From: Actinomycetota bacterium
Lineage (GTDB): Bacteria > Actinomycetota > Geothermincolia > Geothermincolales > RBG-13-55-18
Length of the DNA stretch: 64,000 nucleotides
Direction of reading: 5' to 3'
NCBI GenBank assembly: GCA_030019255.1
Contig: JASEFK010000001.1
Span: forward strand, 184,367 to 248,366
In this document: positions 30,632-60,944 of the stretch, piece after piece
How the letters are laid out: the number at the start of each line of letters is the position of its first letter
How positions within the stretch are numbered: position 1 is the stretch's first letter
The notes under the pieces: model-generated
What the model saw: only the letters and a program-made list of their open reading frames with translations
Databases searched by the model: none
Told to the model about the DNA's origin: nothing
Program-made: the position numbers and the translations under genes

Positions 30632-30872
30632 TTTGCGCCGCCTTCCTAGGGATAACGTCGGTTTGACGGTCTATAATACCTTAACAGACGAATAGCGGAC
30701 GCGGGAAGGCGAAAGGGGAAACCCGACCGGGAGCGGTGGGTTTGAGATAAGGCTCAAGTCGAGCGCAGGGCCGTGATGGAACGTGAAAGCTCCTGGCGGC
30801 CGGATGGCGATACCGGAGGGAACGCCGGGGGTGCGGCGGTTCGCCGGGTACCGGGGAGAGGGAGGTAAGACG

Positions 30873-31931
30873 ATGAGGCGGTGTGCGGGCTGTGGGGTGC
30901 CCGTCCTGGTAGGCAAGGAGCTGACCTGGCGGGAGAACGGGGTCGTCATCCAGACCAAGGATCCCGACCACCGTATGCTTTTCTACGAGTCGGAGAACCT
31001 GGACCAGCTCTTTCAGGGCATTGAGGAGATCATCGGGGTGCCCATCGGGCATATCGTCATCGAGAGCAAACGCCGGGAGGTCAGGGAATACGTGGAGAAG
31101 CTCATGCCCGCCCCGGTGAGGAAGATGGCCCGCTACGTGGGCCTTAAGGCCATGATACGGCGGCTCAGCGTCACCGGCATGGCCTACGGCTACGGCAACG
31201 TGCGCCTTTCGGGAAAGAGGTTGCGCTTCCGGGACGACGATTACGTGACCATGTTGATAAGCAACCCGCACTCCCTGTACTTCTTCTGCGGGGAGGGACT
31301 GGGGGCCTGGGAAGCTATCGACGGGCGCGAGAGCTGGGTGCGCTACGAGGAAGTGGCGCCCAACTCCTATGAAATCTCCATCAACATCGCCTCCCATCCC
31401 GTGGAGCTCGCGGAACGGCTGCAGCCGCCGCGCTACGCTTACCGGCCGGGGAAGGTGGACCTGCGAAGATGCCCTTCATGCGGGGTTCCCGCCGCGGTGG
31501 CCTCCTGCCGCTGGGATTCCATGACGGGGACCATCACCGATCCCTCCACGGGCAGGAGGATGGCCGTATTCGGTCCTGCTGGCCTGGAAGCGGTTTTCCT
31601 GGACCTGGAATCCGAGCTGGGAGAGGCCATCCCGGACACCATCATCGAGGCCCAGAGGAGGTTCACCGTGCGCACCCTGCGCCGGGAGGAGCTGGAGGGC
31701 GGCACCGAGGGCATCAGGGAGATGCTGGCCGTCCGTGGGCTGGGACTCCTCGAGGAGATCCGCTTGGGGGAGGAGGGATTGAGTCTCGTCCTGCACAACG
31801 CCTGCGTTCCCCTGCTCATGGCGGGGCTTTTCCAGGGAGCTTACGAGGTCATGGCCGGAAGGGAGGGCAGCCGGGTCGCCTGGAGCATGTCCGGCGAGGG
31901 GGACCTCGAGGTGCGGGTCAGTCCCGCCTGA
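30873..31931 (+). CDS. Zinc-ribbon / V4R-like domain protein with internal tandem duplication (paralog A)
   Basis: 353 aa from ATG 30873 (GGGAGGTAAG RBS). Two modules, each beginning RRC-x2-CGVP. Each module ends in a V4R-like segment (FFCGEGLGAWEAI..., NACVPLLMAGLFQGAYEV...). Paralogous to 52817-53977. Confidence 0.5.
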   Translation: MRRCAGCGVPVLVGKELTWRENGVVIQTKDPDHRMLFYESENLDQLFQGIEEIIGVPIGHIVIESKRREVREYVEKLMPAPVRKMARYVGLKAMIRRLSVTGMAYGYGNVRLSGKRLRFRDDDYVTMLISNPHSLYFFCGEGLGAWEAIDGRESWVRYEEVAPNSYEISINIASHPVELAERLQPPRYAYRPGKVDLRRCPSCGVPAAVASCRWDSMTGTITDPSTGRRMAVFGPAGLEAVFLDLESELGEAIPDTIIEAQRRFTVRTLRREELEGGTEGIREMLAVRGLGLLEEIRLGEEGLSLVLHNACVPLLMAGLFQGAYEVMAGREGSRVAWSMSGEGDLEVRVSPA

Positions 31932-52274: not shown

Positions 52275-52816
52275 TTACCCTCTTATATCCACCGGTGGGA
52301 CCGGCACGGGTTGCGCGGTGTCTCATAACGGCGCTTAGGCCAACGGTCGCGGATATCCGCTCGCGAAGTACATGGACGGGATAGAGGAAATGGCGACTCG
52401 CCACTCATCTCCTTTTCGATTCCGTGATCGGGGGCGAAGGTACGCCGTATGCTTGGTTATGGATTTCGCTTTCCATCTACGGTTAGGCCGTTCGCAGCCG
52501 ATGAACCCAGGGTTCTTCTACCCGCCTCCCCTTTAGTCTCAAGTCTTCAGAACACCTTGACTCAAGTAATAGAACCGAGGTTACTCCTTTCTCCTGACTT
52601 TCCCTTTCGTTTCAAGTCCTTGGTGCCGCCCGACGATGCATTATGGGGACGTGTTAGAATGGTGACGAGGTAGAGATTCGTAAATCCGAAGAGACGGTTT
52701 CATGGTAAGCGGGGCGTTTGGCGGCCTGACCGCCGATGTCCGGAAAGCCGGCATCATGTAAGATGCTGCCGGCGGAAGGGCCTCTCCGGCGCCCGGGAAA
52801 GGCGGAAGTTCGAGGC

Positions 52817-53977
52817 ATGGACCATACGCAAAGCCCGCCCGGGTGGAAGGAAGAGCTTGACCCGGCCGGAGGGGGATACCGGCCCGGAAGGAGGGTGGTG
52901 CGCGCCCGCGGCCTTTCCCTGATGCACCCCTTCCTGCGCCTCTGCCCGGACTGCGGCGTGCCCCTTTCCATATCCCGTAACCATTCCTGGAAGGAGGACG
53001 GCCGCATCCTGAGCCCCGACTCTGCCCAGAGGCTGGTGATCATGGAAAGGCGGGTGGTGGAAGGCATATTGCGCCGGGCGGCGGAGATGTTCGGCGAGGA
53101 AGCCTCAAGGATTCTCACCCGGTGCAAAGCTATGGACGCCTTCCTCTACGTGCGTTCCATCATGACCGGATGGAAAAGGATGGCGGCAAAGGCACCCTTC
53201 GGTGGAAGGCACTTCTACGACCTCCTGTGCGACCAGGCTCGCATACTGGGGATGGCGGATGCCCGGGTGATCTCCTACCGGAAGCGCCGTGAGCTCTTGG
53301 TAGGTTGTACCCAGTGTTACAGCGAGGCCTTTTTCGCGGGAGACGTGCTGGGAGCGGTGCAGGCGGGGGAGGGAAGGGAGGCCGAGGTGACCTTTTGGGA
53401 GGAGAAGGGGGAGAAGAGGTTCGGGGTTACCATCGGGGGGAGGGAAGTTCCCACGCCCGTCCTGCCCACGTTCGAGGAGGATCCCCTGCCGGGTAACATC
53501 GTCTACCGGAGGTGTGAGCGCTGCCGGGCCCCCTTCCCGGTGAGCTTCTTCGCCTGGGACACCGCCCGGGGGCTGGTACTGGATACCCACAACGGGGAGA
53601 CGGTGGCCATGCTGGACACGGCGGGGATGAATGCCGCTTACCTGGAGATAAAGCGGACCCGCCTCCCGGAGCTCGACGAGCTTCTGGCGCGGGAGATAAA
53701 GGAGATGGTGGACCGGGTTCTCCCCCGCCTGGAGTGGAAGAGGCGCGGTCCCGAGGAACGGGTGCGCGACCTCTTCTTTCTGGCCTACCGGGGTATGGGA
53801 AACCCGATTTTCACCCGGGGTTCGGGAAAGTTCCTGGAGGCCCGGGTGGAAAACCCCTTCAACCACCCCATCGTGGCCGGGATCACCGCCTCCTTCCTCT
53901 CCCGCGGCGAGCCCGTCTCCTGGGAATGGGAGAGGAAGGAAAGGGCGGCCCTGGAAGTGCGCGTGAGTTTCCTCTGA
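52817..53977 (+). CDS. Zinc-ribbon / V4R-like domain protein with internal duplication (paralog B)
   Basis: Start uncertain (ATG 52817 or 52922). CPDCGVP and CERCRAP Cys pairs. V4R-like segments (CYSEAFFAGDVLGAVQAGEG...). Same architecture and length as 30873-31931. Ends ...LEVRVSFL versus ...LEVRVSPA. Confidence 0.5.
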   Translation: MDHTQSPPGWKEELDPAGGGYRPGRRVVRARGLSLMHPFLRLCPDCGVPLSISRNHSWKEDGRILSPDSAQRLVIMERRVVEGILRRAAEMFGEEASRILTRCKAMDAFLYVRSIMTGWKRMAAKAPFGGRHFYDLLCDQARILGMADARVISYRKRRELLVGCTQCYSEAFFAGDVLGAVQAGEGREAEVTFWEEKGEKRFGVTIGGREVPTPVLPTFEEDPLPGNIVYRRCERCRAPFPVSFFAWDTARGLVLDTHNGETVAMLDTAGMNAAYLEIKRTRLPELDELLAREIKEMVDRVLPRLEWKRRGPEERVRDLFFLAYRGMGNPIFTRGSGKFLEARVENPFNHPIVAGITASFLSRGEPVSWEWERKERAALEVRVSFL

Positions 53978-54215
53978 TTCCGCGCGGAGCAAGGTGAACC
54001 CGTGGCCGTCGCACCTTGGGCGAAGACCCCGTCAACCCCTGGTACTACCCTTGGCGTCAATTCACCGGGGATGGAGAAGTTTGGATAGGTCTCCGCGCGT
54101 ACCGTGCGCCAGGGTAAGGACGTTCTTTACCCCTTTTACCACCGCGTTTCGAAAGCCTTCGCCGCCGCGGAAGGGAGACCTGCGACCGTGGCTTTACGGT
54201 TTGCGGGAGGGCGGA

Positions 54216-54617
54216 TCACGTTTCCGCCCCTCCGTTCTTGCCCCGTGGCAGGAGGTCGCCCCACTCCTCCTCCAGGCGTCCCAGGATCTCCCGCACTTCG
54301 CCCCGGATCTCGGACTTGCGCGCCTCCTCGCGCTGCCTCCGCCGCGTCTTGAAGTCCGGATCATGAAAGACGCGGTGGATGAGATCCCGGGCCTCGGGGC
54401 CGCTGAATTCGGGGAGCAGGAAGAGGGCCTGGCGGTCCTCTCCGTCCTCGCGGTTCCATTTCTCCACCGCGATGCCGTAATAACGGCAGAGGATGTTCTT
54501 GGCCTTGATGACCTCGAAGTCGTCCACCCCGAACTCGTAGCCGATGTCTTCGTCGTAGAGGTGGCCCCTCTCGAGGAGCAGGTAGGCAATCCTTTCCGCC
54601 AGCTCGCGAGCGTCCAT
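54216..54617 (-). CDS. Hypothetical protein
   Basis: 133-aa ORF on the same strand as the upstream operon. No recognisable family. Lower GC. Confidence 0.3.
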   Translation of the reverse strand: MDARELAERIAYLLLERGHLYDEDIGYEFGVDDFEVIKAKNILCRYYGIAVEKWNREDGEDRQALFLLPEFSGPEARDLIHRVFHDPDFKTRRRQREEARKSEIRGEVREILGRLEEEWGDLLPRGKNGGAET

Positions 54618-54910
54618 GGCTCCATCGACCCCGATTCAAACGAAAAGCTCTGGGCGGTATCTTTTATCGGAAGCGGGAACGAGAAATTTAACCCCTCGAG
54701 AGAACGAGGTCAGCCGATGGCCTTTCATGATCAAGAATCCGCCTGTCAAGGTCCTCCCTGATGGATGTGCATTCAAAAAACGAGGGGCCGGAGTTACCAC
54801 GGAGGGCAGCTTCTCGTGCCATCGTTTTATCGTTGACAGGGAGATGAAATTCATCCTCGCGGAAAGCACCCAAGGGGAAGGCCATTCCGGCTGTCCCACG
54901 GCCGAAGATG

Positions 54911-55315
54911 TCAATGACGCTGCGAAGAGAGGTTGGTGATATAGGAACGGCTGCCGGTCTCGTTGCGCAGGAACTCGTCGAACTCCTCCTCGGAGACCTT
55001 TACCCCGGAGTGGAGGAAGAGGGTGTAGAGGTAATAGCTCATGTAGGACCATTCCCGGCGGAGCTCCTCGGCTATCCTCTCCCGCTTGCTCTTCACGGGG
55101 ATGAGTCTCTCTCCCTCGTATTCCAGCTCGTTGAGCTTCCTGCGCAGGTCCCGGCAGGTCCGTATGGCGTCCCGGGTCTCGTACTCGAGATCCGTCTTGC
55201 TCATGTTATTGATGTTGCGAATCCAGGGGGGGATGGCGTCGGATGGCGTGCCGTGCTTGTACAGGTTGTAGTATCGCGCCAACTTCTTCAGGACCTCCTC
55301 CGGCACTTCCTCCAT
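54911..55315 (-). CDS. Hypothetical protein (co-transcribed with HCS-like gene, 10-nt gap)
   Basis: 134-aa ORF. Lower GC. No recognisable family. Confidence 0.35.
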   Translation of the reverse strand: MEEVPEEVLKKLARYYNLYKHGTPSDAIPPWIRNINNMSKTDLEYETRDAIRTCRDLRRKLNELEYEGERLIPVKSKRERIAEELRREWSYMSYYLYTLFLHSGVKVSEEEFDEFLRNETGSRSYITNLSSQRH

Positions 55316-55325
55316 TTCCGCCCTC

Positions 55326-56708
55326 CTAAGCCCTGCTCTTCAAGGTGATGTGGGACAGGTCCAGGGTGAGTATCTTGCGGGCCAGGTCCGGGTAGCGGGC
55401 GATGAAGAGGAGCTCGTCCTCCACCAGCGGCTTCTGGGTGGTGACGTTGGCGTAGCGTACCAGCTCCAGTATGTCGCGGGCTTCCTCCTCGGACTGGAAC
55501 TCCACCTCCAGCTTCTCGTAGACGTTGCGGAACCCCTTGATGCCGGAATATTCACCCAGGGTGATGTTGCGTCCCGTCTCGATGATCTCCGGTTCGCCCC
55601 GACCCAGCTCCTCGTAGTCGTAGAGCTCGTAGTTGCGCCGGCTCTTCAGGGCGCCGTCGGCGTGTATGCCAGATTCGTGGGCGAAGGCGTTGTCGCCCAC
55701 CCCGGGCTGGTTGATGGGGATGGGGACCCCGAAGGCATAGGAGGCGTATTTAGCCGTCTTCCAGGCGGCCATCAGGTTGACCGCGTCGTCCAGGACGTCC
55801 TCGCCGTCGAAGAGGGAGGACTTTTTGATGGCCAGGATGACCGACACCAGGTCCGCGTTGCCCGCTCGCTCCCCCATGCCATTTATAGTGGTGTTGATAT
55901 AGGCGTTTACCCCTCCATCCAGGGCGCCCTTGGCCCCGGCTACCGAGCAGGCCACGGCCATCCCCAGGTCATTGTGGCAGTGCAACTCGATGTCCATCCC
56001 CGTTTCCCGGGCCAGGAGGTTGATGCGCTCGTAGATGGTGAAGGGGTCGTTATAGCCCAGGGTGTCGCAGTAACGCAGGCGTGCCGCCCCGTGTTCCCTG
56101 GCCGCCAGGGTGAACTCCACGAGGTGCTCGTCGGAGGTGCGGGAGGCGTCCTCGGCGTTCACCCCCACGGACTGAAAACCGAGCTCGTGGGCGCAGTCCA
56201 GGGCCTCGGTCATCATGCGCACCACGTCCTTGAACTTGTAGCGGTCATTCCACTTGCCACGGATCATCTGCTCGGAGGTGGAGATGGAGATGTTGATGAA
56301 TTTCAGGTTGGGGACCAGCTCCCGGGCCAGCTCCACGTCTGAACTTATGGCCCGCACCCACCCGGAGAGGCGCGTGTGGTGGATGACCCCCATCTCCGCC
56401 AGCTCCAGGTTGGCCTGCAGGTAATTGGTCTCGTGGCGGGTGGTGGGAAATCCGAACTCGCTCTGCCAGATGCCCATCTCGTCCAGAAGAAGGTTGATGA
56501 TGGTCTTCTGGAGCTTGGCCAGTCCCAGGCGTGAGGTCTGAACGCCGTCGCGGTTGGTGACGTCGACTATGTATATGCGCTTGGAGCGGTCCTTGCTTCC
56601 GCCCTTGACGTTATCCGACAATTCCCTACCTCTCTTTACGGATATCAGTCTTTTACGGATATCAGTCGCTAACCGTCTCCTTTTCCCTGATCTCCTGGAC
56701 GGCATCAT
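55326..56708 (-). CDS. Homocitrate synthase / 2-isopropylmalate synthase / citramalate synthase family (HMGL-like)
   Basis: About 460 aa. DTLGYNDP, HCHNDLGMA and ESGIHADG motifs of the DRE-TIM aldolase family. Start ATG 56708 or TTG 56720, overlapping the aminotransferase 3' end. Confidence 0.75.
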   Translation of the reverse strand: MMPSRRSGKRRRLATDIRKRLISVKRGRELSDNVKGGSKDRSKRIYIVDVTNRDGVQTSRLGLAKLQKTIINLLLDEMGIWQSEFGFPTTRHETNYLQANLELAEMGVIHHTRLSGWVRAISSDVELARELVPNLKFINISISTSEQMIRGKWNDRYKFKDVVRMMTEALDCAHELGFQSVGVNAEDASRTSDEHLVEFTLAAREHGAARLRYCDTLGYNDPFTIYERINLLARETGMDIELHCHNDLGMAVACSVAGAKGALDGGVNAYINTTINGMGERAGNADLVSVILAIKKSSLFDGEDVLDDAVNLMAAWKTAKYASYAFGVPIPINQPGVGDNAFAHESGIHADGALKSRRNYELYDYEELGRGEPEIIETGRNITLGEYSGIKGFRNVYEKLEVEFQSEEEARDILELVRYANVTTQKPLVEDELLFIARYPDLARKILTLDLSHITLKSRA

Positions 56709-57996
56709 AAAGTATATCAAAGAGGTCGGCTATGTGCTCCTTTTCCAGGCAGGAAAAGGCGATGCGCAGGTCGCGGGGGCCGGTCGCCACCACCCCGACC
56801 CCGTGCCTTTCCAGCAGGTGGCGGCGAAGGACCTCGGCGTCGACGTCGTGAAGGCGGAGGCACATGAAGTACCCGCTGTTGAAGGGGTAGGGCGTGAAGA
56901 TCTCCGCGAAGCGAGGGTCCTCGAGGACCCTCTTCACCTCCCGGTACCGCTCGAGGAGGACTTGGAACTTCTCCTCCTTCTCCTCCCGATATCCCACGGC
57001 CTTTATGGCCTTCACCAGCAGGTGTTGGGAGGGCGTGGAACACTTGGATATGGTGCCCCGTATGAGCCCGGCCACCTTCTTCTCCAGGACCTCGTAGACC
57101 ACCTCCCGCCTTCCCGGGCTGCGGTGGCTGAAGGTGATGAAGCCTATCCGGAATCCCCACACGTAGTCCTCCTTGGTGGGGCCGTCTATCTTGACGGCCG
57201 TGATGCGGGGATGGCAGTCGGCTAAAAGGGAAAAGAAGGATTCCGAGAAGCTCTCCTCCTCGTAGAAGAGGCCGGTGTAGGCGTCGTCCACCCCCACCAC
57301 CAGGTCGAGGTCCCCGTCGGCGGCGTTGAGGAGGACGGCGATGAGCTCCGCTGCTTCCTCGCGGTCGGGGGTGTACCCGGTGGGGTTGTGGGGGAAGTTG
57401 AGGATGACCAGGGCTTTACCGGGACGGGGGAGGGACTCGAGGGCCACGGAGAAGGCCTCCACGTCGAGGCGGCCGTCCGGCTTGAACAGGGGGTAACGGA
57501 CGATATCCGCTCCTCGGCGGACGCCGAATATCATGCGGTAATTGCCCCAGCTCATGTCCGGGAGGAGGAGGCGGTCTCCGGCGTCGCAGAACATGTCCGC
57601 CATGATGCTCAGGGCATGGGTGAGCCCGCTGGTGACCACGGGGAGGGAGAAGCTCTTCCCCTCCAGGCCGGGACTCATGGCCAGGAGGTGCTCCCTCCAC
57701 AGGCGCCTCAGCTCCGGTATCCCCGCCGTCGGTGAATAGGGAAAGGCCTCCTCCGCCTTGAGGTTCTTGATGTACTTGCGCAGGGTGCGCAGGTACATGG
57801 GCTTTCCGTTCTGGATGGCCATGCCGATGGTGGCGTTGTAGCGGTGGGCGAGCCTCTTGGCCTCCGCCGTATGGGTCAGGATTCCCCGCGGAAAGAAGAG
57901 CTCCCTCCCCAGCGAGGAAAGGGATCGGTAGAGGCTGGGGGCGTTTTCCCGCAGTACCTCGTTCAACTCCACGGCCAGGGGATCTATGGTCCTCAC
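56662..57996 (-). CDS. PLP-dependent aminotransferase (class I/II fold)
   Basis: NFPHNPTGYTP motif and the aspartate-aminotransferase-fold pattern. The N-terminal 28 residues of the track ORF are low complexity. Probable GTG start near 57996 with a GGGAAGG RBS. Confidence 0.7.
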   Translation of the reverse strand: MRTIDPLAVELNEVLRENAPSLYRSLSSLGRELFFPRGILTHTAEAKRLAHRYNATIGMAIQNGKPMYLRTLRKYIKNLKAEEAFPYSPTAGIPELRRLWREHLLAMSPGLEGKSFSLPVVTSGLTHALSIMADMFCDAGDRLLLPDMSWGNYRMIFGVRRGADIVRYPLFKPDGRLDVEAFSVALESLPRPGKALVILNFPHNPTGYTPDREEAAELIAVLLNAADGDLDLVVGVDDAYTGLFYEEESFSESFFSLLADCHPRITAVKIDGPTKEDYVWGFRIGFITFSHRSPGRREVVYEVLEKKVAGLIRGTISKCSTPSQHLLVKAIKAVGYREEKEEKFQVLLERYREVKRVLEDPRFAEIFTPYPFNSGYFMCLRLHDVDAEVLRRHLLERHGVGVVATGPRDLRIAFSCLEKEHIADLFDILYDAVQEIREKETVSD

Positions 57997-58243
57997 CTCC
58001 CGCCTTCCCGCCGTCCGCTGGGTACCGTGCCGGCGCCGCCGGAAACCACCGCCGGTTTTCCCGGCCCCCCCGCGGTTCACGGCCGCCTTTCCATGTTAGT
58101 GGCCGGGTACCCGTGTTATCACATTATAAAGGAAGGGGGCACGGATATCACGGTCCTGGTGCCTGTTTGTACGATACGGCATCGGCCCATCCACTTGCCC
58201 GGATCCGAATCTCGGCGACGCGACCTTCCGGCTTGCCGCGGGT

Positions 58244-58906
58244 TCAGGACTTTCCCAGGCGGATCTTGGCCAGCTCCCAGGCGTAGTCGTAGAGGTGCAT
58301 GCCCTTGGAGAGGGCGATGGTCTCACCGGGTTCCACGCCGATCTCCTCCGCCATGTACTCCTTGAGGAGCTGGATACCCGCCAGATTGGAGGGAAAGCCG
58401 GCCCAGAGGTCCCAGGAACGGAAATAGACCACGAAATGCAGCTTGCGCTCCTCGGGATAGATGCGGGTGTCTATCTGGCGGAGGCACGGAGGGTCGTCGA
58501 GGTAGATAGACTGGGAATCGCACACCGCCATGCATGCCTGGTTGGTGCCGAATCCCTCCTCCCGGTACATGCGGATGACCTCCTGTATCTGGTGTTCCAG
58601 GTACATGCCGTAGGTGTAGTCCTCGTTCTCCGCCTTGGAGCTCGCGGAACACAGCTTTTCCAGGTATTCATGTACGTATTCCATATCCGTGGGAGGGGGC
58701 AACCCGATGCCGGGCGGGATGTCGGGGATGAGGGGACGGGTCTCCGGGTACTTTATCTTCACCACCACGAAGTCGTATTCCAGGCGACGGTTCCCCTTGA
58801 AGCTGCCCCGGTCGATGACGTATTCCCTGCCCTTATCGAAGATGTTGTAGACGCACTGGAACCAGGCGTCCGGCAGGTCCCTGGCCTCGATGAAGGTGAT
58901 CTCCAT
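58244..58906 (-). CDS. Thymidylate synthase ThyA-family enzyme (short archaeal-type; dUMP-specific Asn retained)
   Basis: About 221 aa from MEITFIEARDL. Alignable to ThyA. PPCLRQI matches the catalytic APCHAFFQ. RSWDLWAGFPSNLAG matches RSCDVFLGLPFNIAS. GMHLYDY matches GDTHLY. Confidence 0.7.
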   Translation of the reverse strand: MEITFIEARDLPDAWFQCVYNIFDKGREYVIDRGSFKGNRRLEYDFVVVKIKYPETRPLIPDIPPGIGLPPPTDMEYVHEYLEKLCSASSKAENEDYTYGMYLEHQIQEVIRMYREEGFGTNQACMAVCDSQSIYLDDPPCLRQIDTRIYPEERKLHFVVYFRSWDLWAGFPSNLAGIQLLKEYMAEEIGVEPGETIALSKGMHLYDYAWELAKIRLGKS

Positions 58907-59425
58907 TCCCCTTTCCTCGCTTTCCCGCACGTCCTTTACGAAGCGATAAAGTCCTCTCCAAACCCGCTGTTACGGCGGGGGCCGCATCCGGACCGGGCTT
59001 GAACCCGGAAACGGCCGGGCCTTTCGACGTGCCCTTCTTCCCGCCACCGGAGCGCCCTCGCCGCTTCGGCGGCGGGCGGAAACCCCGGCTTTACGAGGAT
59101 AATGCTAACACCGGGCGGTGACGAAGAACAGGATAAGCCCCCGTGCCGGCATCCTTCCGCCGGGCATGAATATGGGCGAGGTTCATGGGGGTACGGCTTT
59201 TAACGGGTTCATCCGCAATGAAGGTGCCCGGATAAACGCCGCCCATGCTGGAGTTTTTTCCGCCTGACCCGACCGCCCGGAGGGGTCTTGCGCCAGCGGG
59301 AAAGGGAGCCTCCGTCGGAACCCCTACCGTGCGGCCTGCGCCGGGGAGGGTGAGGATCGCTTCTGGTAGAATGTTCCCGGATCGATGGGAACGATTTTTC
59401 GCCGGAGGGTGGTCCACCGGAGGAG

Positions 59426-60247
59426 ATGAGGAGGATGGCTGCTCCGCCGATAGTGGCCGGTTGCGACGTGGGATCGACAACCGGGAAAGCCCTGCTCATG
59501 CGGGGGGAAGAAGTGCTGGGCTTCTCCATTATCCCCTGCGCCGTGAGGCCCGAGCTCACCGCCGAACAGGCCCTCGAGCTGGCCATGCGCGAGGCGGAGG
59601 TGTCCTCACGCGAGGATATTGCCTACGTGGTGGGGACCGGCTACGGCCGAGTGCGCATCCCCTTCGCCGACGAGAACGTCTCCGAGATAACCTGCCACGG
59701 CCTGGGCGCCTACTTCCTCAGGCCGGGCGAGCGCACGCTCATCGACATCGGCGGGCAGGACTGCAAGGTCATACGCATCAATTCCCAGGGACGGGTGGTG
59801 GACTTCGCCATGAACGATAAGTGCGCGGCGGGCACGGGCAGGTTCTTCGAGGCCATGGCCCGCGTGCTGGAGGTATCCCTGGAAGAACTTACCAGTTTGT
59901 CCCTGCGTTCCGTAAAACCGGCGCAGATCACCAGCCAGTGCAGTGTCTTCGCCGAGTCCGAGGTCATCACCCTGCTTAACGAGGGGGTGGCCCTGGAGGA
60001 TATCGCCGCCGGCATCAACGAGGCCATCGCCTCCCGCCTGGCCGTGCTGGTGCGCAAGGTGGGCCTGGAGGGGGAGGCCTCCGTGTCCGGGGGCTGCGCC
60101 AAGAACCGCGGCCTCATCCTCTCCCTGGAGAGGAGGCTCCAGGTGAAGGTGGAGGAACTGGGCATGGACCCACAGGTGATAGGGGCTCTGGGGGCGGCGG
60201 TGATAGCGGGGAAAAAGGCGATGGGCGCGAGCGGCGGGGGTGGGTAA
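59426..60247 (+). CDS. BadF/BadG/BcrA/BcrD-type ATPase (2-hydroxyacyl-CoA dehydratase activator HgdC-like)
   Basis: 273 aa. VAGCDVGSTTGKAL, ITCHGLGA, DIGGQDCKVI and NDKCAAGTGRF motifs. Confidence 0.8.
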   Translation: MRRMAAPPIVAGCDVGSTTGKALLMRGEEVLGFSIIPCAVRPELTAEQALELAMREAEVSSREDIAYVVGTGYGRVRIPFADENVSEITCHGLGAYFLRPGERTLIDIGGQDCKVIRINSQGRVVDFAMNDKCAAGTGRFFEAMARVLEVSLEELTSLSLRSVKPAQITSQCSVFAESEVITLLNEGVALEDIAAGINEAIASRLAVLVRKVGLEGEASVSGGCAKNRGLILSLERRLQVKVEELGMDPQVIGALGAAVIAGKKAMGASGGGG

Positions 60248-60944
60248 GATGGAGCGGCCCGGGACTCCGGAAGGGGAGGAGAGGTATATCCGGAAGATAA
60301 AGGAGCTGGACATGATCTGGCGGCTCAACGAACAGATCATGTCCTTCCGCGATATGGGGAGCCTCCTGCAGAGCATACTCAAGGGAGCCCTGGAGGTCAT
60401 GGAGGCCACCTCGGGTTCCATAATGCTCATCGACCCGCCGGGAAGCGACACCCTGGTCATCAAAGCCGCCCACGGATTGCGCCGGGAGGTGGTGCAGAAG
60501 GCCCGCACCCGGGTGGGGGAGGGCATAGCCGGGCTGGTGGCGGAAAGGAGGGAGGGGATGCTCCTCCTGGACGACCTCATGGACCCGCGGCTACGCACCC
60601 GGCGCAAGGTTACCGATGCCCTGAGCGTGCCCATCATCGCCGAGGGCGAACTGCTGGGGGTGCTGAACCTTAACACCAAGCGCGGCCAGGCCTTCGGGGA
60701 ATTCGACCTCTTTTTACTCAACACCCTCATCAAGCAGATTGCCTCGGCCATAGTGAGGGGCGAGCGCCTGGAGAACCTACGCTCCAGGCTCTCCGTGATC
60801 GAGGAGCGGGAGAGGGAGATCGTGGAGGAGATAAGGCGCCTGGACCGGCTCCTGGACGAGAAACGCCGGGAATACCAGAGGTTGCGACAGGAGCACGACA
60901 GGCTCCTGCGCGAGATGCAGGGCCTGTCCGGCCCGGTGGCCTGA
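60240..60944 (+). CDS. GAF domain protein with C-terminal coiled coil
   Basis: 234 aa. GAF-like pattern (SGSIMLID, GEGIAGLVA, PIIAEGELLGVLNL). Confidence 0.6.
   Translation: MGKMERPGTPEGEERYIRKIKELDMIWRLNEQIMSFRDMGSLLQSILKGALEVMEATSGSIMLIDPPGSDTLVIKAAHGLRREVVQKARTRVGEGIAGLVAERREGMLLLDDLMDPRLRTRRKVTDALSVPIIAEGELLGVLNLNTKRGQAFGEFDLFLLNTLIKQIASAIVRGERLENLRSRLSVIEEREREIVEEIRRLDRLLDEKRREYQRLRQEHDRLLREMQGLSGPVA

Follow-up and report, generated by a model that had tools for sequence, protein, structure and literature searches.

Five minus-strand open reading frames lie together within the 64-kb window, which is the whole stretch of DNA analysed: a short ThyA homologue, an aminotransferase (AT), an HMGL-like condensing enzyme (HMGL) and two small proteins, ORF134 and ORF133 (Table 1). 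All five exist as originally predicted and show coding-type codon-position GC (GC3 of 0.84-0.86, GC2 of 0.37-0.42). The predicted domain assignments were likewise recovered, as PF00303 for ThyA, Aminotran_1_2 for AT and HMGL-like plus HCS_D2 for HMGL, and neither of the two small ORFs had a Pfam or NCBIfam match.

Table 1. Genes and sequence features of the thyA-AT-HMGL locus, in window positions.
Feature	Coordinates	Strand	Description
Short ThyA	58244..58906	minus	220 aa; PF00303 match
Class-I PLP aminotransferase (AT), PRK08637 / PDB 2x5f family	56662..57996	minus	NF006388 and 2x5f matches
HMGL-like + HCS_D2 DRE-TIM condensing enzyme (HMGL)	55326..56621	minus	PF00682 and PF22617
ORF134, all-helical, clade-specific	54911..55315	minus	begins 10 nt after HMGL
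ORF133, small conserved protein	54216..54617	minus	293 nt downstream of ORF134
σ70-like promoter match, GTGATA-17 nt-TATAAT	58123..58151	minus	in the thyA-AT spacer
17-nt tandem duplication (CTGATATCCGTAAA...)	56638..56664	minus	spans the AT stop codon

The spacing of these genes agreed only in part with what had been described. The short gap after HMGL and the gap of about 290 nt between ORF134 and ORF133 were both correct, but an apparent 3' overlap of AT and HMGL was an artefact of extending the ORFs to their longest possible start, and gene calls made independently on identical contigs leave 40 nt between the two genes. Similarly, thyA and AT, which had been considered tightly linked, are separated by a spacer of 247 nt with the promoter-like match inside it. 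A lower GC content in the 3' part of the operon could be seen as a slight drop (0.56-0.58 versus ~0.62-0.64), but it is marginal, falls mostly in intergenic stretches and leaves GC3 unchanged.

The most likely start of ThyA is at 58906, giving 220 aa as in nearly all homologues and close to the ~221 aa first estimated; a GTG at 58930, which is the start in the longest ORF and was chosen by one gene caller, would give a protein of 228 aa. In profile searches ThyA exceeded the gathering cutoff of PF00303 (41.3 bits versus 24.3), and more than 100 thymidylate synthases in the PDB matched it with E values of 1e-6 to 1e-8. Residues 13-219 aligned to positions 2-199 of the 201 in TIGR03283, the methanogen-type thymidylate synthase model, and this full-length alignment scored 84.3 bits, below the equivalog cutoff of 174.55; the score against the canonical-type model TIGR03284 was 29.7 bits, also below cutoff (108.35). 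The protein is thus like the short archaeal and methanogen ThyAs in its size, its catalytic Cys, its R-S, D, N, H and Y residues and its lack of a C-terminal tail, and unlike them in being bacterial and in scoring below the equivalog cutoff, which places it in a distinct bacterial sub-clade.

Aligning 16 diverse homologues, we found that C141, R163, S164, D166, N174, H204 and Y206 are invariant and that invariant columns make up 80 of the 220 positions, the catalytic Cys and the residues that bind dUMP among them. These seven residues align to the E. coli nucleophile C146 and to the dUMP/uracil contacts R166, S167, D169, N177, H207 and Y209, such that the catalytic Cys, R-S pair and uracil-specifying Asn of the original prediction are all present, together with the equivalents of D169, H207 and Y209. 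In comparison with the E. coli or L. casei enzyme, however, the short ThyA lacks the small domain and the partner-subunit phosphate-binding pair R126'/R127', in whose place stands an invariant T121-N122-Q123, and it stops near the position of E. coli residue 222, without the C-terminal tail of ~40 residues that closes over the folate. The missing Arg pair and the missing tail are common to the whole short-ThyA family and not peculiar to the thyA-AT-HMGL locus, and the signature motifs TNQACMAVCD and PPCLRQID are identical in linked and unlinked actinobacterial ThyAs.

Such departures from the canonical enzyme, together with scores below both equivalog cutoffs, might suggest that the short bacterial ThyA-like family is a different C5-pyrimidine enzyme or uses a different one-carbon donor, as a housekeeping function unrelated to its neighbours. 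A related archaeal clade has been called experimentally uncharacterised (PMC9931769), and cofactor specificity in the archaeal clade has been described as hard to predict (PMC9012536). We nevertheless find this reading quite improbable: the catalytic and uracil-contacting residues are all invariant, conservation that is very high from phylum to phylum and FolE2 among the neighbours both fit an essential folate-dependent enzyme, and thymidylate synthase function is accepted for methanogen homologues of similar length (Krone 1994; Nyce & White 1996; both cited in PMC9931769), a view shared by the TIGR03283 annotation. We therefore assume, by homology to these poorly studied archaeal enzymes, that the thyA product is a thymidylate synthase, and judge correct the cautious alternative of the original prediction, that it could simply be the cell's own; neither a second ThyA nor a credible ThyX-motif ORF was found within the window.

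Homologues of this ThyA number more than 7,900 and occur in several phyla; among the 120 listed, identity is 62-90% and most are ~220 aa long and 65-90% identical, and the named family members come from Actinomycetota and from Deltaproteobacteria MAGs. Across 80 metagenomic ThyA loci (43 with at least 1.5 kb of downstream sequence and 48 with at least 1.5 kb upstream), AT, HMGL and ORF134 lay beside thyA in a single case, L093, which belongs to the same clade and whose ThyA is 88% identical. The commonest neighbours elsewhere were RlmN (19 loci) and FolE2 of the folate pathway (7 loci), and on two contigs (L002 and L003) thyA stands alone. On the best reading of these data, thyA is an unremarkable housekeeping gene with a wide distribution.

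Conservation of the neighbourhood across genomes, to which the original prediction had looked, was seen within one clade but not outside it. The order thyA-AT-HMGL-ORF134 was present in every examined member of the Geothermincolia-like lineage of uncultured, anaerobic Actinomycetota (L001, L010, L011, L012 and L093) and was conserved only there; in L012 it remained intact although the flanks differ and identity falls to 44% for AT and 38% for ORF134. Elsewhere the genes were unlinked in 79 of the 80 ThyA loci and in all 37 HMGL loci, the latter drawn from GTDB species of other lineages (52-72% identity; phyla named among them include Omnitrophota, Planctomycetia, Gastranaerophilales, Nitrospirota and Armatimonadota) and showing neither AT nor thyA within 8 kb. 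One of the two observations that the original prediction named as refuting it, a lack of linkage among relatives, was thereby made outside the clade. Two further contig types (L004/L005 and L008/L009) carry the AT-HMGL pair without thyA, and in the first of these GTP-PEPCK, which is likewise an oxaloacetate enzyme, comes next after the pair. Since the four-gene order within the clade is kept beyond the expectation for random adjacency, it may reflect some co-regulation or read-through.

The promoter-like site in the thyA-AT spacer agrees with the σ70 consensus at 10 of 12 positions. It is the sole such match in the 5.6 kb scanned (53900-59500), a call by consensus match only, in a region where 1.4 matches would be expected. 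A -10-like hexamer (TATAAT, TATACT or TATATT) also occurs upstream of AT in all five clade members named above, and the thyA-AT gap is at least 110 nt in all relatives. On this evidence the spacer promoter probably drives AT-HMGL-ORF134.

These observations bear on the proposal, made in the original prediction, that a ThyA-like hydroxymethylase, a PLP enzyme and a condensing enzyme might act together in nucleoside or DNA modification. In such a clade-specific pathway, a pyrimidine nucleotide would be hydroxymethylated or methylated by the ThyA-like protein and further modified by AT and HMGL, with ORF134 taking part. The order of the four genes throughout the clade, even between different flanks, the restriction of ORF134 to that clade and the absence from ThyA of two of the four canonical phosphate-binding arginines would fit such a scheme. 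With MilA, BcmA, T4 gp42 and SPO1 gp29-type hydroxymethylases the locus shares the PF00303 fold family and a nearby PLP enzyme. However, the missing arginines are a family-wide trait, linked and unlinked ThyAs show no difference in their active sites, and the linkage itself is limited to one clade and interrupted by the promoter-like site. Moreover, divergence has been much more rapid in AT (52% identity) than in thyA and HMGL (84% each). In dCMP and CMP hydroxymethylases (T4 gp42, MilA, BcmA), an Asp replaces Asn177 and hydrogen-bonds cytosine N3/N4, whereas Asn174 is invariant here and this hallmark Asp was not found at that position. Also unlike nucleoside-antibiotic and phage hypermodification clusters, the locus has no phage or BGC context and contains no kinase, glycosidase, glycosyltransferase or other transferase, nucleotide hydrolase, or resistance or transport genes. 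With thyA merely upstream of a separately promoted AT-HMGL pair in one clade, we see no sign of a nucleoside-modification pathway and consider a single pathway of this kind extremely unlikely. It is also very unlikely that the four genes form a looser functional unit in this clade, with an atypical ThyA acting on or supplying a pyrimidine or one-carbon intermediate for AT and HMGL and ORF134 as their partner, or, in a milder version, that the whole short-ThyA family has a non-canonical mode of substrate binding or one-carbon carrier.

AT, called as 444 aa on identical contigs, scored 580.2 bits against NF006388 (PRK08637; cutoff 301) and matched PDB 2x5f over its full length (E = 7e-110). Its translation contains the NPTG and DDAY motifs, the TK of the Schiff-base lysine (within GPTKEDYVWGFRIG) and the C-terminal Arg, and it therefore shares the PLP-Lys and substrate-carboxylate Arg motifs of S. 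aureus SAR2028 (2x5f) and PRK08637. It differs from them in a lineage-specific N-terminus whose start is ambiguous, being either the GTG at 57996 or, three codons further on, an ATA, and possibly non-AUG. These motifs and matches suggest a class-I aminotransferase of the aspartate/aromatic family. Across the entire PRK08637/2x5f family, the 'Asp/Tyr/Phe' substrate specificity is a prediction only.

HMGL, called as 431 aa on identical contigs with a start at 56621 that agrees with the N-termini of its homologues, contains PF00682 (1e-44) and PF22617 (HCS_D2) only, with no LeuA-type regulatory (LeuA_dimer) domain. Its invariant residues include R17-D18-G19, H207, H209, D211 and G243-E-R-A-G-N248, corresponding to the RDG, HxHND and GERAGN motifs. 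All 22 of its NCBIfam matches, NifV, LeuA, CimA and LysS among them, fell under their cutoffs. Its orthologues, 52-98% identical, stand apart as a group of their own, the next paralogues reaching no more than 35%. Five of them are named 'citrate (Re)-synthase' by JGI, which names others NifV, and many are called homocitrate synthase by their sources. Most of their neighbours are serA (11), purA (11) and serC-like genes (8); aconitase-family genes occur in 5 of 34 loci, and one of them is a bona fide PRK07229 aconitate hydratase (1016 bits).

Re-citrate synthase (EC 2.3.3.3, KEGG K05942) is found in Clostridium kluyveri, Syntrophus, Dehalococcoides and Heliomicrobium, and the biochemically characterised enzymes include C. 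kluyveri CKL_0973, those of S. aciditrophicus and D. mccartyi, and H. modesticaldum HM1_2993. HMGL resembles these enzymes in its HMGL-like DRE-TIM and HCS_D2 domains without the LeuA regulatory domain, its annotation as homocitrate synthase, its strict-anaerobe hosts and its solo or near-aconitase position. It is known that Re-citrate synthases can be wrongly labelled homocitrate or isopropylmalate synthase (PMC12016533; PMC8027424), and those described split into at least two distant clades (PMC12016533). By its domains and, indirectly, by the names of some orthologues, HMGL is probably a Re-citrate synthase.

We also considered whether AT and HMGL might instead carry out 2-oxoacid chain elongation followed by transamination, for example as a homocitrate synthase with a 2-aminoadipate-type aminotransferase in the α-aminoadipate lysine route, or in the synthesis of another homo-amino acid, with thyA unrelated. 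The source names of many HMGL orthologues point this way, an aminotransferase lies directly upstream of HMGL in three lineages, and the best curated match of HMGL is the NifV homocitrate synthase; yet that match, at 265 bits, is far under the NifV cutoff of 463, and the score is likewise far under that of LysS (413). Genes for homoaconitase, homoisocitrate dehydrogenase or LysW/X were adjacent in none of the loci examined, most HMGL orthologues stand solo among housekeeping genes of the serA, purA and aconitase type in non-diazotrophic lineages, and the PEPCK that follows the pair in L004 points to oxaloacetate. Chain elongation therefore appears rather unlikely.

Taken together, the evidence makes it likely that ordinary genes of central metabolism lie side by side in this locus, that a housekeeping thyA precedes a separately promoted operon of AT and a Re-citrate-synthase-like enzyme, and that no dedicated pathway is involved. 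In this model, the short archaeal-type ThyA would form its own transcription unit and methylate dUMP, yielding dTMP, at the expense of a methylene-tetrahydropterin that is probably methylene-THF, while a separate promoter ~250 nt downstream of thyA would transcribe a three-gene operon of AT, HMGL and ORF134. HMGL would condense acetyl-CoA with oxaloacetate, and the citrate formed would enter the oxidative branch that leads to 2-oxoglutarate and glutamate in this anaerobe. Oxaloacetate and 2-oxoglutarate/glutamate would be common to both enzymes, which would explain why the AT-HMGL pair is conserved in other lineages as well.

ORF134, confined to the Geothermincolia-like clade, is probably co-translated with HMGL and could assist or regulate the synthase as its partner. 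ORF133 is probably a separate unit, a small gene that accompanies the convergent ORF413 and not HMGL. Its homologue lies 8 nt after ORF134 in L001, has a glycosyl hydrolase gene between itself and ORF134 in L011 and L012, and was not found in L010. In a single-sequence AF2 model of ORF133 (pLDDT 48) the elements follow one another as H-H-H-β-β, no more than a hint of a winged-helix protein. Finally, a 10-mer of the tandem duplication at the AT stop codon, TGATATCCGT, also overlaps the -35 hexamer of the spacer promoter match (58141-58150); absent from the corresponding spacers of relatives, this repeat has three exact copies across the window, all of them within the thyA-AT-HMGL locus.

The five consecutive minus-strand open reading frames named in the original prediction, running from thyA (a short archaeal-type ThyA) through AT (a class-I aminotransferase) and HMGL (a condensing enzyme) to ORF134 and ORF133, are present at the positions given there, and all five display the codon-position GC pattern of real genes (GC3 of 0.84-0.86 and GC2 of 0.37-0.42, in a genome of 64% GC). 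Gene boundaries were taken from independent gene calls on sequence-identical public contigs (L173-L175), by which AT begins 247 nt after thyA, HMGL 40 nt after AT, ORF134 10 nt after HMGL and ORF133 293 nt after ORF134. The overlap previously proposed between AT and HMGL is a product of extending each frame to its longest possible start, and the shorter HMGL start agrees with the N-termini of HMGL homologues; nearly all ThyA homologues are ~220 aa long, starting at the methionine equivalent to 58906. The lower GC ascribed to the 3' part of the operon is marginal (0.56-0.58 versus 0.62-0.64, with GC3 unchanged), and horizontal acquisition was rejected because GC3 equals that of the flanking genes.

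Coordinates of genes and sequence features at the thyA-ORF133 locus and of related genes in the window
Feature	Position	Strand	Remarks
thyA	58244-58930	minus	gene calls on L173-L175
AT	56662-57996	minus	444 aa; gene calls on L173-L175
HMGL	55326-56621	minus	431 aa; gene calls on L173-L175
ORF134	54911-55315	minus	gene calls on L173-L175
ORF133	54216-54617	minus	gene calls on L173-L175
σ70-like promoter match	58151-58123	minus	GTGATA-17-TATAAT, in thyA-AT spacer
TGATATCCGT, three copies	58141-58150, 56655-56664, 56638-56647	minus	exact matches
Acyl-CoA dehydratase activase (BcrAD/BadFG-type) and GAF-domain protein	59426-60944	plus	divergent from thyA
ORF413	52736-53977	plus	convergent with ORF133
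ORF413 paralogue	30783-31931	plus	24% identical, 22 kb away

The predicted domain assignments held for all three enzymes: ThyA matches Thymidylat_synt (Pfam; 41.3 bits versus a cutoff of 24.3), HMGL carries HMGL-like and HCS_D2 domains (Pfam), and AT is a class-I aminotransferase (NF006388/PRK08637; 580 bits versus a cutoff of 301) whose closest solved structure is S. aureus 2x5f (E = 7e-110). The NCBIfam model of methanogen-type thymidylate synthase, TIGR03283, aligns to ThyA over its full length at a sub-threshold score (84 bits versus 174.6). More than 7,900 proteins match ThyA at E ≤ 1e-3, the best 120 of them at 65-90% identity, and the few taxon-named entries among the homologues listed are Actinomycetota and Deltaproteobacteria MAGs; named relatives of both ThyA and HMGL include Geothermincolia or Actinomycetota MAGs. 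An alignment of 16 diverse ThyA members has 80 invariant columns, and the invariant C141, R163-S164, D166, N174, H204 and Y206 align to E. coli C146, R166-S167, D169, N177, H207 and Y209, so that the earlier claims of a catalytic Cys, an R-S pair and a uracil-specifying Asn are correct, all being invariant across the 16. In place of the E. coli partner-subunit residues R126'/R127', ThyA has an invariant TNQ, and the protein, which ends near E. coli residue 222, has no C-terminal folate-closing tail. Judged from the aligned sequences, both are features of the whole short-ThyA family and not specific to this locus.

Thymidylate synthase is the accepted function of the archaeal ThyA clade related to these short bacterial proteins. 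Experimental work on that clade has had no follow-up (PMC9931769), and predicting its cofactor specificity is difficult (PMC9012536). In the literature searched we found no biochemical study of the bacterial short archaeal-type family, which is very large and without the two canonical phosphate-binding arginines; a literature search for MJ0757 found nothing. Neither a second ThyA nor a credible ThyX motif was detected within the 64-kb window.

Conservation of the neighbourhood, offered originally as a check on functional coupling, proved partial: the order thyA-AT-HMGL-ORF134 is kept inside a Geothermincolia-like Actinomycetota clade (contigs L001, L010, L011, L012 and L093), whereas outside it the genes are unlinked in the other 79 of 80 ThyA loci and in all 37 HMGL loci, none of which has a PRK08637-type AT or ThyA within 8 kb of the HMGL orthologue. 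L012 keeps the four-gene order with identities of just 44% for AT and 38% for ORF134 and with different flanks (proB/proA/nadD at one end; a glycosyl hydrolase, secG, tpi and pgk at the opposite end). The 80 metagenomic loci came from a ThyA profile search (62-88% identity), with at least 1.5 kb of flank downstream in 43 and upstream in 48; AT, HMGL and ORF134 lie beside ThyA in one, the clade member L093. The commonest ThyA neighbours in the other 79 are the rRNA methyltransferase RlmN (19/79) and FolE2, a GTP cyclohydrolase of the folate pathway (7/79). Unrelated genes also surround the ThyAs of L002, a deltaproteobacterial genome (68% identical), and of L003 (71%). The unlinked ThyAs of the closest sub-clade (L003, L094-L096), whose named members are Actinomycetota MAGs, carry the same TNQACMAVC[DN] and PPCLRQ[IV]D signatures and two-residue insertion as the linked ones, and since these are shared, nothing in them suggests neofunctionalisation tied to linkage.

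Among the unlinked metagenomic loci (L094-L172), a nitroreductase-family gene precedes ThyA in the actinobacterial sister group. In the window, an activase and a GAF-domain protein are encoded divergently from thyA, and two acyl-CoA dehydrogenases and a TetR regulator lie downstream of the thyA-ORF133 cluster, a flanking synteny common to L001, L010 and L011 and not found in L012.

A thyA gene beside a PLP enzyme had been raised as a possible sign of nucleoside chemistry, and this reading is not supported here. Unlike nucleoside-antibiotic and DNA-hypermodification clusters, the locus contains no tailoring kinases, glycosidases or transferases, and its gene co-occurrence is not conserved across genomes; the Asp of cytosine-type ThyA-like enzymes is not present in ThyA. 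Each enzyme falls into a known family, namely archaeal-type short ThyA, PRK08637/2x5f aminotransferases, and HCS-like condensing enzymes, probably Re-citrate synthase. The locus is best regarded as an ordinary case of housekeeping genes placed side by side in one lineage, which removes a false lead and carries little weight for discovery. A functional connection behind the clade-wide four-gene block, or a non-canonical mechanism in the short ThyA family, is in our view very unlikely.

The best curated match of HMGL is NifV, at 265 bits far under the cutoff of 463, and HMGL fails every LeuA, CimA and LysS cutoff (NCBIfam). Across GTDB species genomes its orthologues range from 72% down to 52% identity, followed by a drop to LeuA-/NifV-like paralogues at ≤35%, a break by which they are delimited as a discrete group. 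The 37 orthologous loci include Omnitrophota, Planctomycetia, Gastranaerophilales, Latescibacterota, Nitrospirota/Thermodesulfovibrionia, Armatimonadota and an ANME-1 archaeon, among others, and their neighbours are of housekeeping type: serA (11 loci), purA (11), a serC-like class-V aminotransferase (8), an H+-pyrophosphatase (5) and aconitase-family proteins (5). The single aconitase-family neighbour compared with NCBIfam is a genuine PRK07229 aconitate hydratase (1016 bits). JGI uses the name 'citrate (Re)-synthase' for several orthologues and 'homocitrate synthase NifV' for others, and a role in homocitrate-type chain elongation is a serious rival. Re-citrate synthases are HCS/IPMS relatives, form at least two distant clades and are routinely given the wrong annotation, homocitrate or isopropylmalate synthase (PMC12016533; PMC8027424).

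The AT-HMGL pair also occurs without thyA in two other contig types (L004/L005 and L008/L009), followed by a GTP-PEPCK in L004/L005. Aspartate-family aminotransferases, citrate synthase and PEPCK all work on oxaloacetate. This would give a simple rationale for the pair, with oxaloacetate/aspartate on one side and citrate, 2-oxoglutarate and glutamate in succession on the other. From the discrete group, its neighbours, the JGI names, the mis-annotation literature and the PEPCK context, we infer that HMGL is probably a Re-citrate synthase; an HMGL profile search of genome contigs gave no direct link to the Re-citrate synthase organisms C. kluyveri, Syntrophus and Dehalococcoides, returning only MAG-dominated close orthologues and 30-35% paralogues. 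The group is probably the missing Re-type citrate synthase in metabolic reconstructions of uncultured anaerobic Actinomycetota, Omnitrophota, Planctomycetia, Gastranaerophilales and Nitrospirota.

Several of the 37 loci, with many Omnitrophota or Planctomycetia MAGs among them, share a recurrent serC-like/serA/HMGL/purA/H+-pyrophosphatase arrangement. A PRK07229 aconitate hydratase gene lies ~1 kb downstream of the HMGL orthologue on an Armatimonadota chromosome (L044).

The thyA-AT spacer holds the sole σ70-like promoter match in the 5.6 kb scanned, which counts as a consensus match only, since shuffled sequence averages 1.4 matches. Each of the five related contigs aligned has a TATAAT, TATACT or TATATT hexamer upstream of AT, within spacers that are GC-rich and otherwise poorly conserved, and the thyA-AT gap in relatives is 112-389 nt as called. 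Together, the called gaps, the promoter match and the recurrent hexamer suggest that thyA would form its own transcription unit and AT-HMGL-ORF134 a separately promoted operon. An Rfam scan of 53500-59600 (E ≤ 1) returned two chance eukaryotic lncRNA matches only, so that the spacers contain neither a riboswitch nor a leader family.

The 64-kb window contains exactly three copies of the 10-mer TGATATCCGT, all within the thyA-ORF133 locus: the copy at 58141-58150 overlaps the promoter-like site upstream of AT at its -35 hexamer, and the remaining two make up a 17-nt tandem duplication (CTGATATCCGTAAA...) across the AT stop codon. Since the equivalent spacers of relatives lack it, TGATATCCGT was dropped as a conserved operator and we make no functional claim for it; it may thus have arisen by recent duplication within the locus or be an operator specific to the strain.

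The AT frames of L093, L010, L011 and L001 contain no AUG, GUG or UUG near a strong Shine-Dalgarno sequence (AAGGAGGT) and have an in-frame ATC 6-10 nt past it, with an in-frame TGA just upstream in L001. At the equivalent place (57985-58000) the window has a GTG (57996) and an ATA, a pattern that suggests a conserved non-canonical AUC/AUA start.

ORF134 and ORF133 have no Pfam or NCBIfam matches. ORF134 shares 96% identity with a hypothetical protein of Candidatus Solincola tengchongensis, and its taxon-named homologues are all Actinomycetota MAGs; with the names of the ThyA and HMGL relatives, this assigns the window to an uncultured anaerobic actinobacterium of that group. Small, confidently folded and restricted to the clade, ORF134 is a partner of the HMGL synthase and a candidate regulatory subunit. 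Two very long proteins, P0309 (1032 aa) and P0310 (2073 aa), match positions 26-70 of its profile 7 and 10 times. Coiled-coil or repeat sequence probably accounts for this as an artefact, though the helical-hairpin segment may serve as a repeat unit in other proteins.

ORF133 homologues (41-65% identity) occur in L001, L011 and L012 and none was found in L010; they follow ORF134 after 8 nt in L001 and 278 nt in L011, and a glycosyl hydrolase gene intervenes in L012. A single-sequence structure model (pLDDT 48; H-H-H-β-β order) and a weak TFIIE_alpha (winged-helix) match in one homologue (E = 0.03) give only hints of a winged-helix protein. ORF133 always adjoins a convergent homologue of ORF413, which has no family match and contains two CxxC pairs and a weak zinc-finger match. 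ORF413 homologues (23-25% identity) also lie 1-2 kb from unlinked thyA in L003 and L094-L097.
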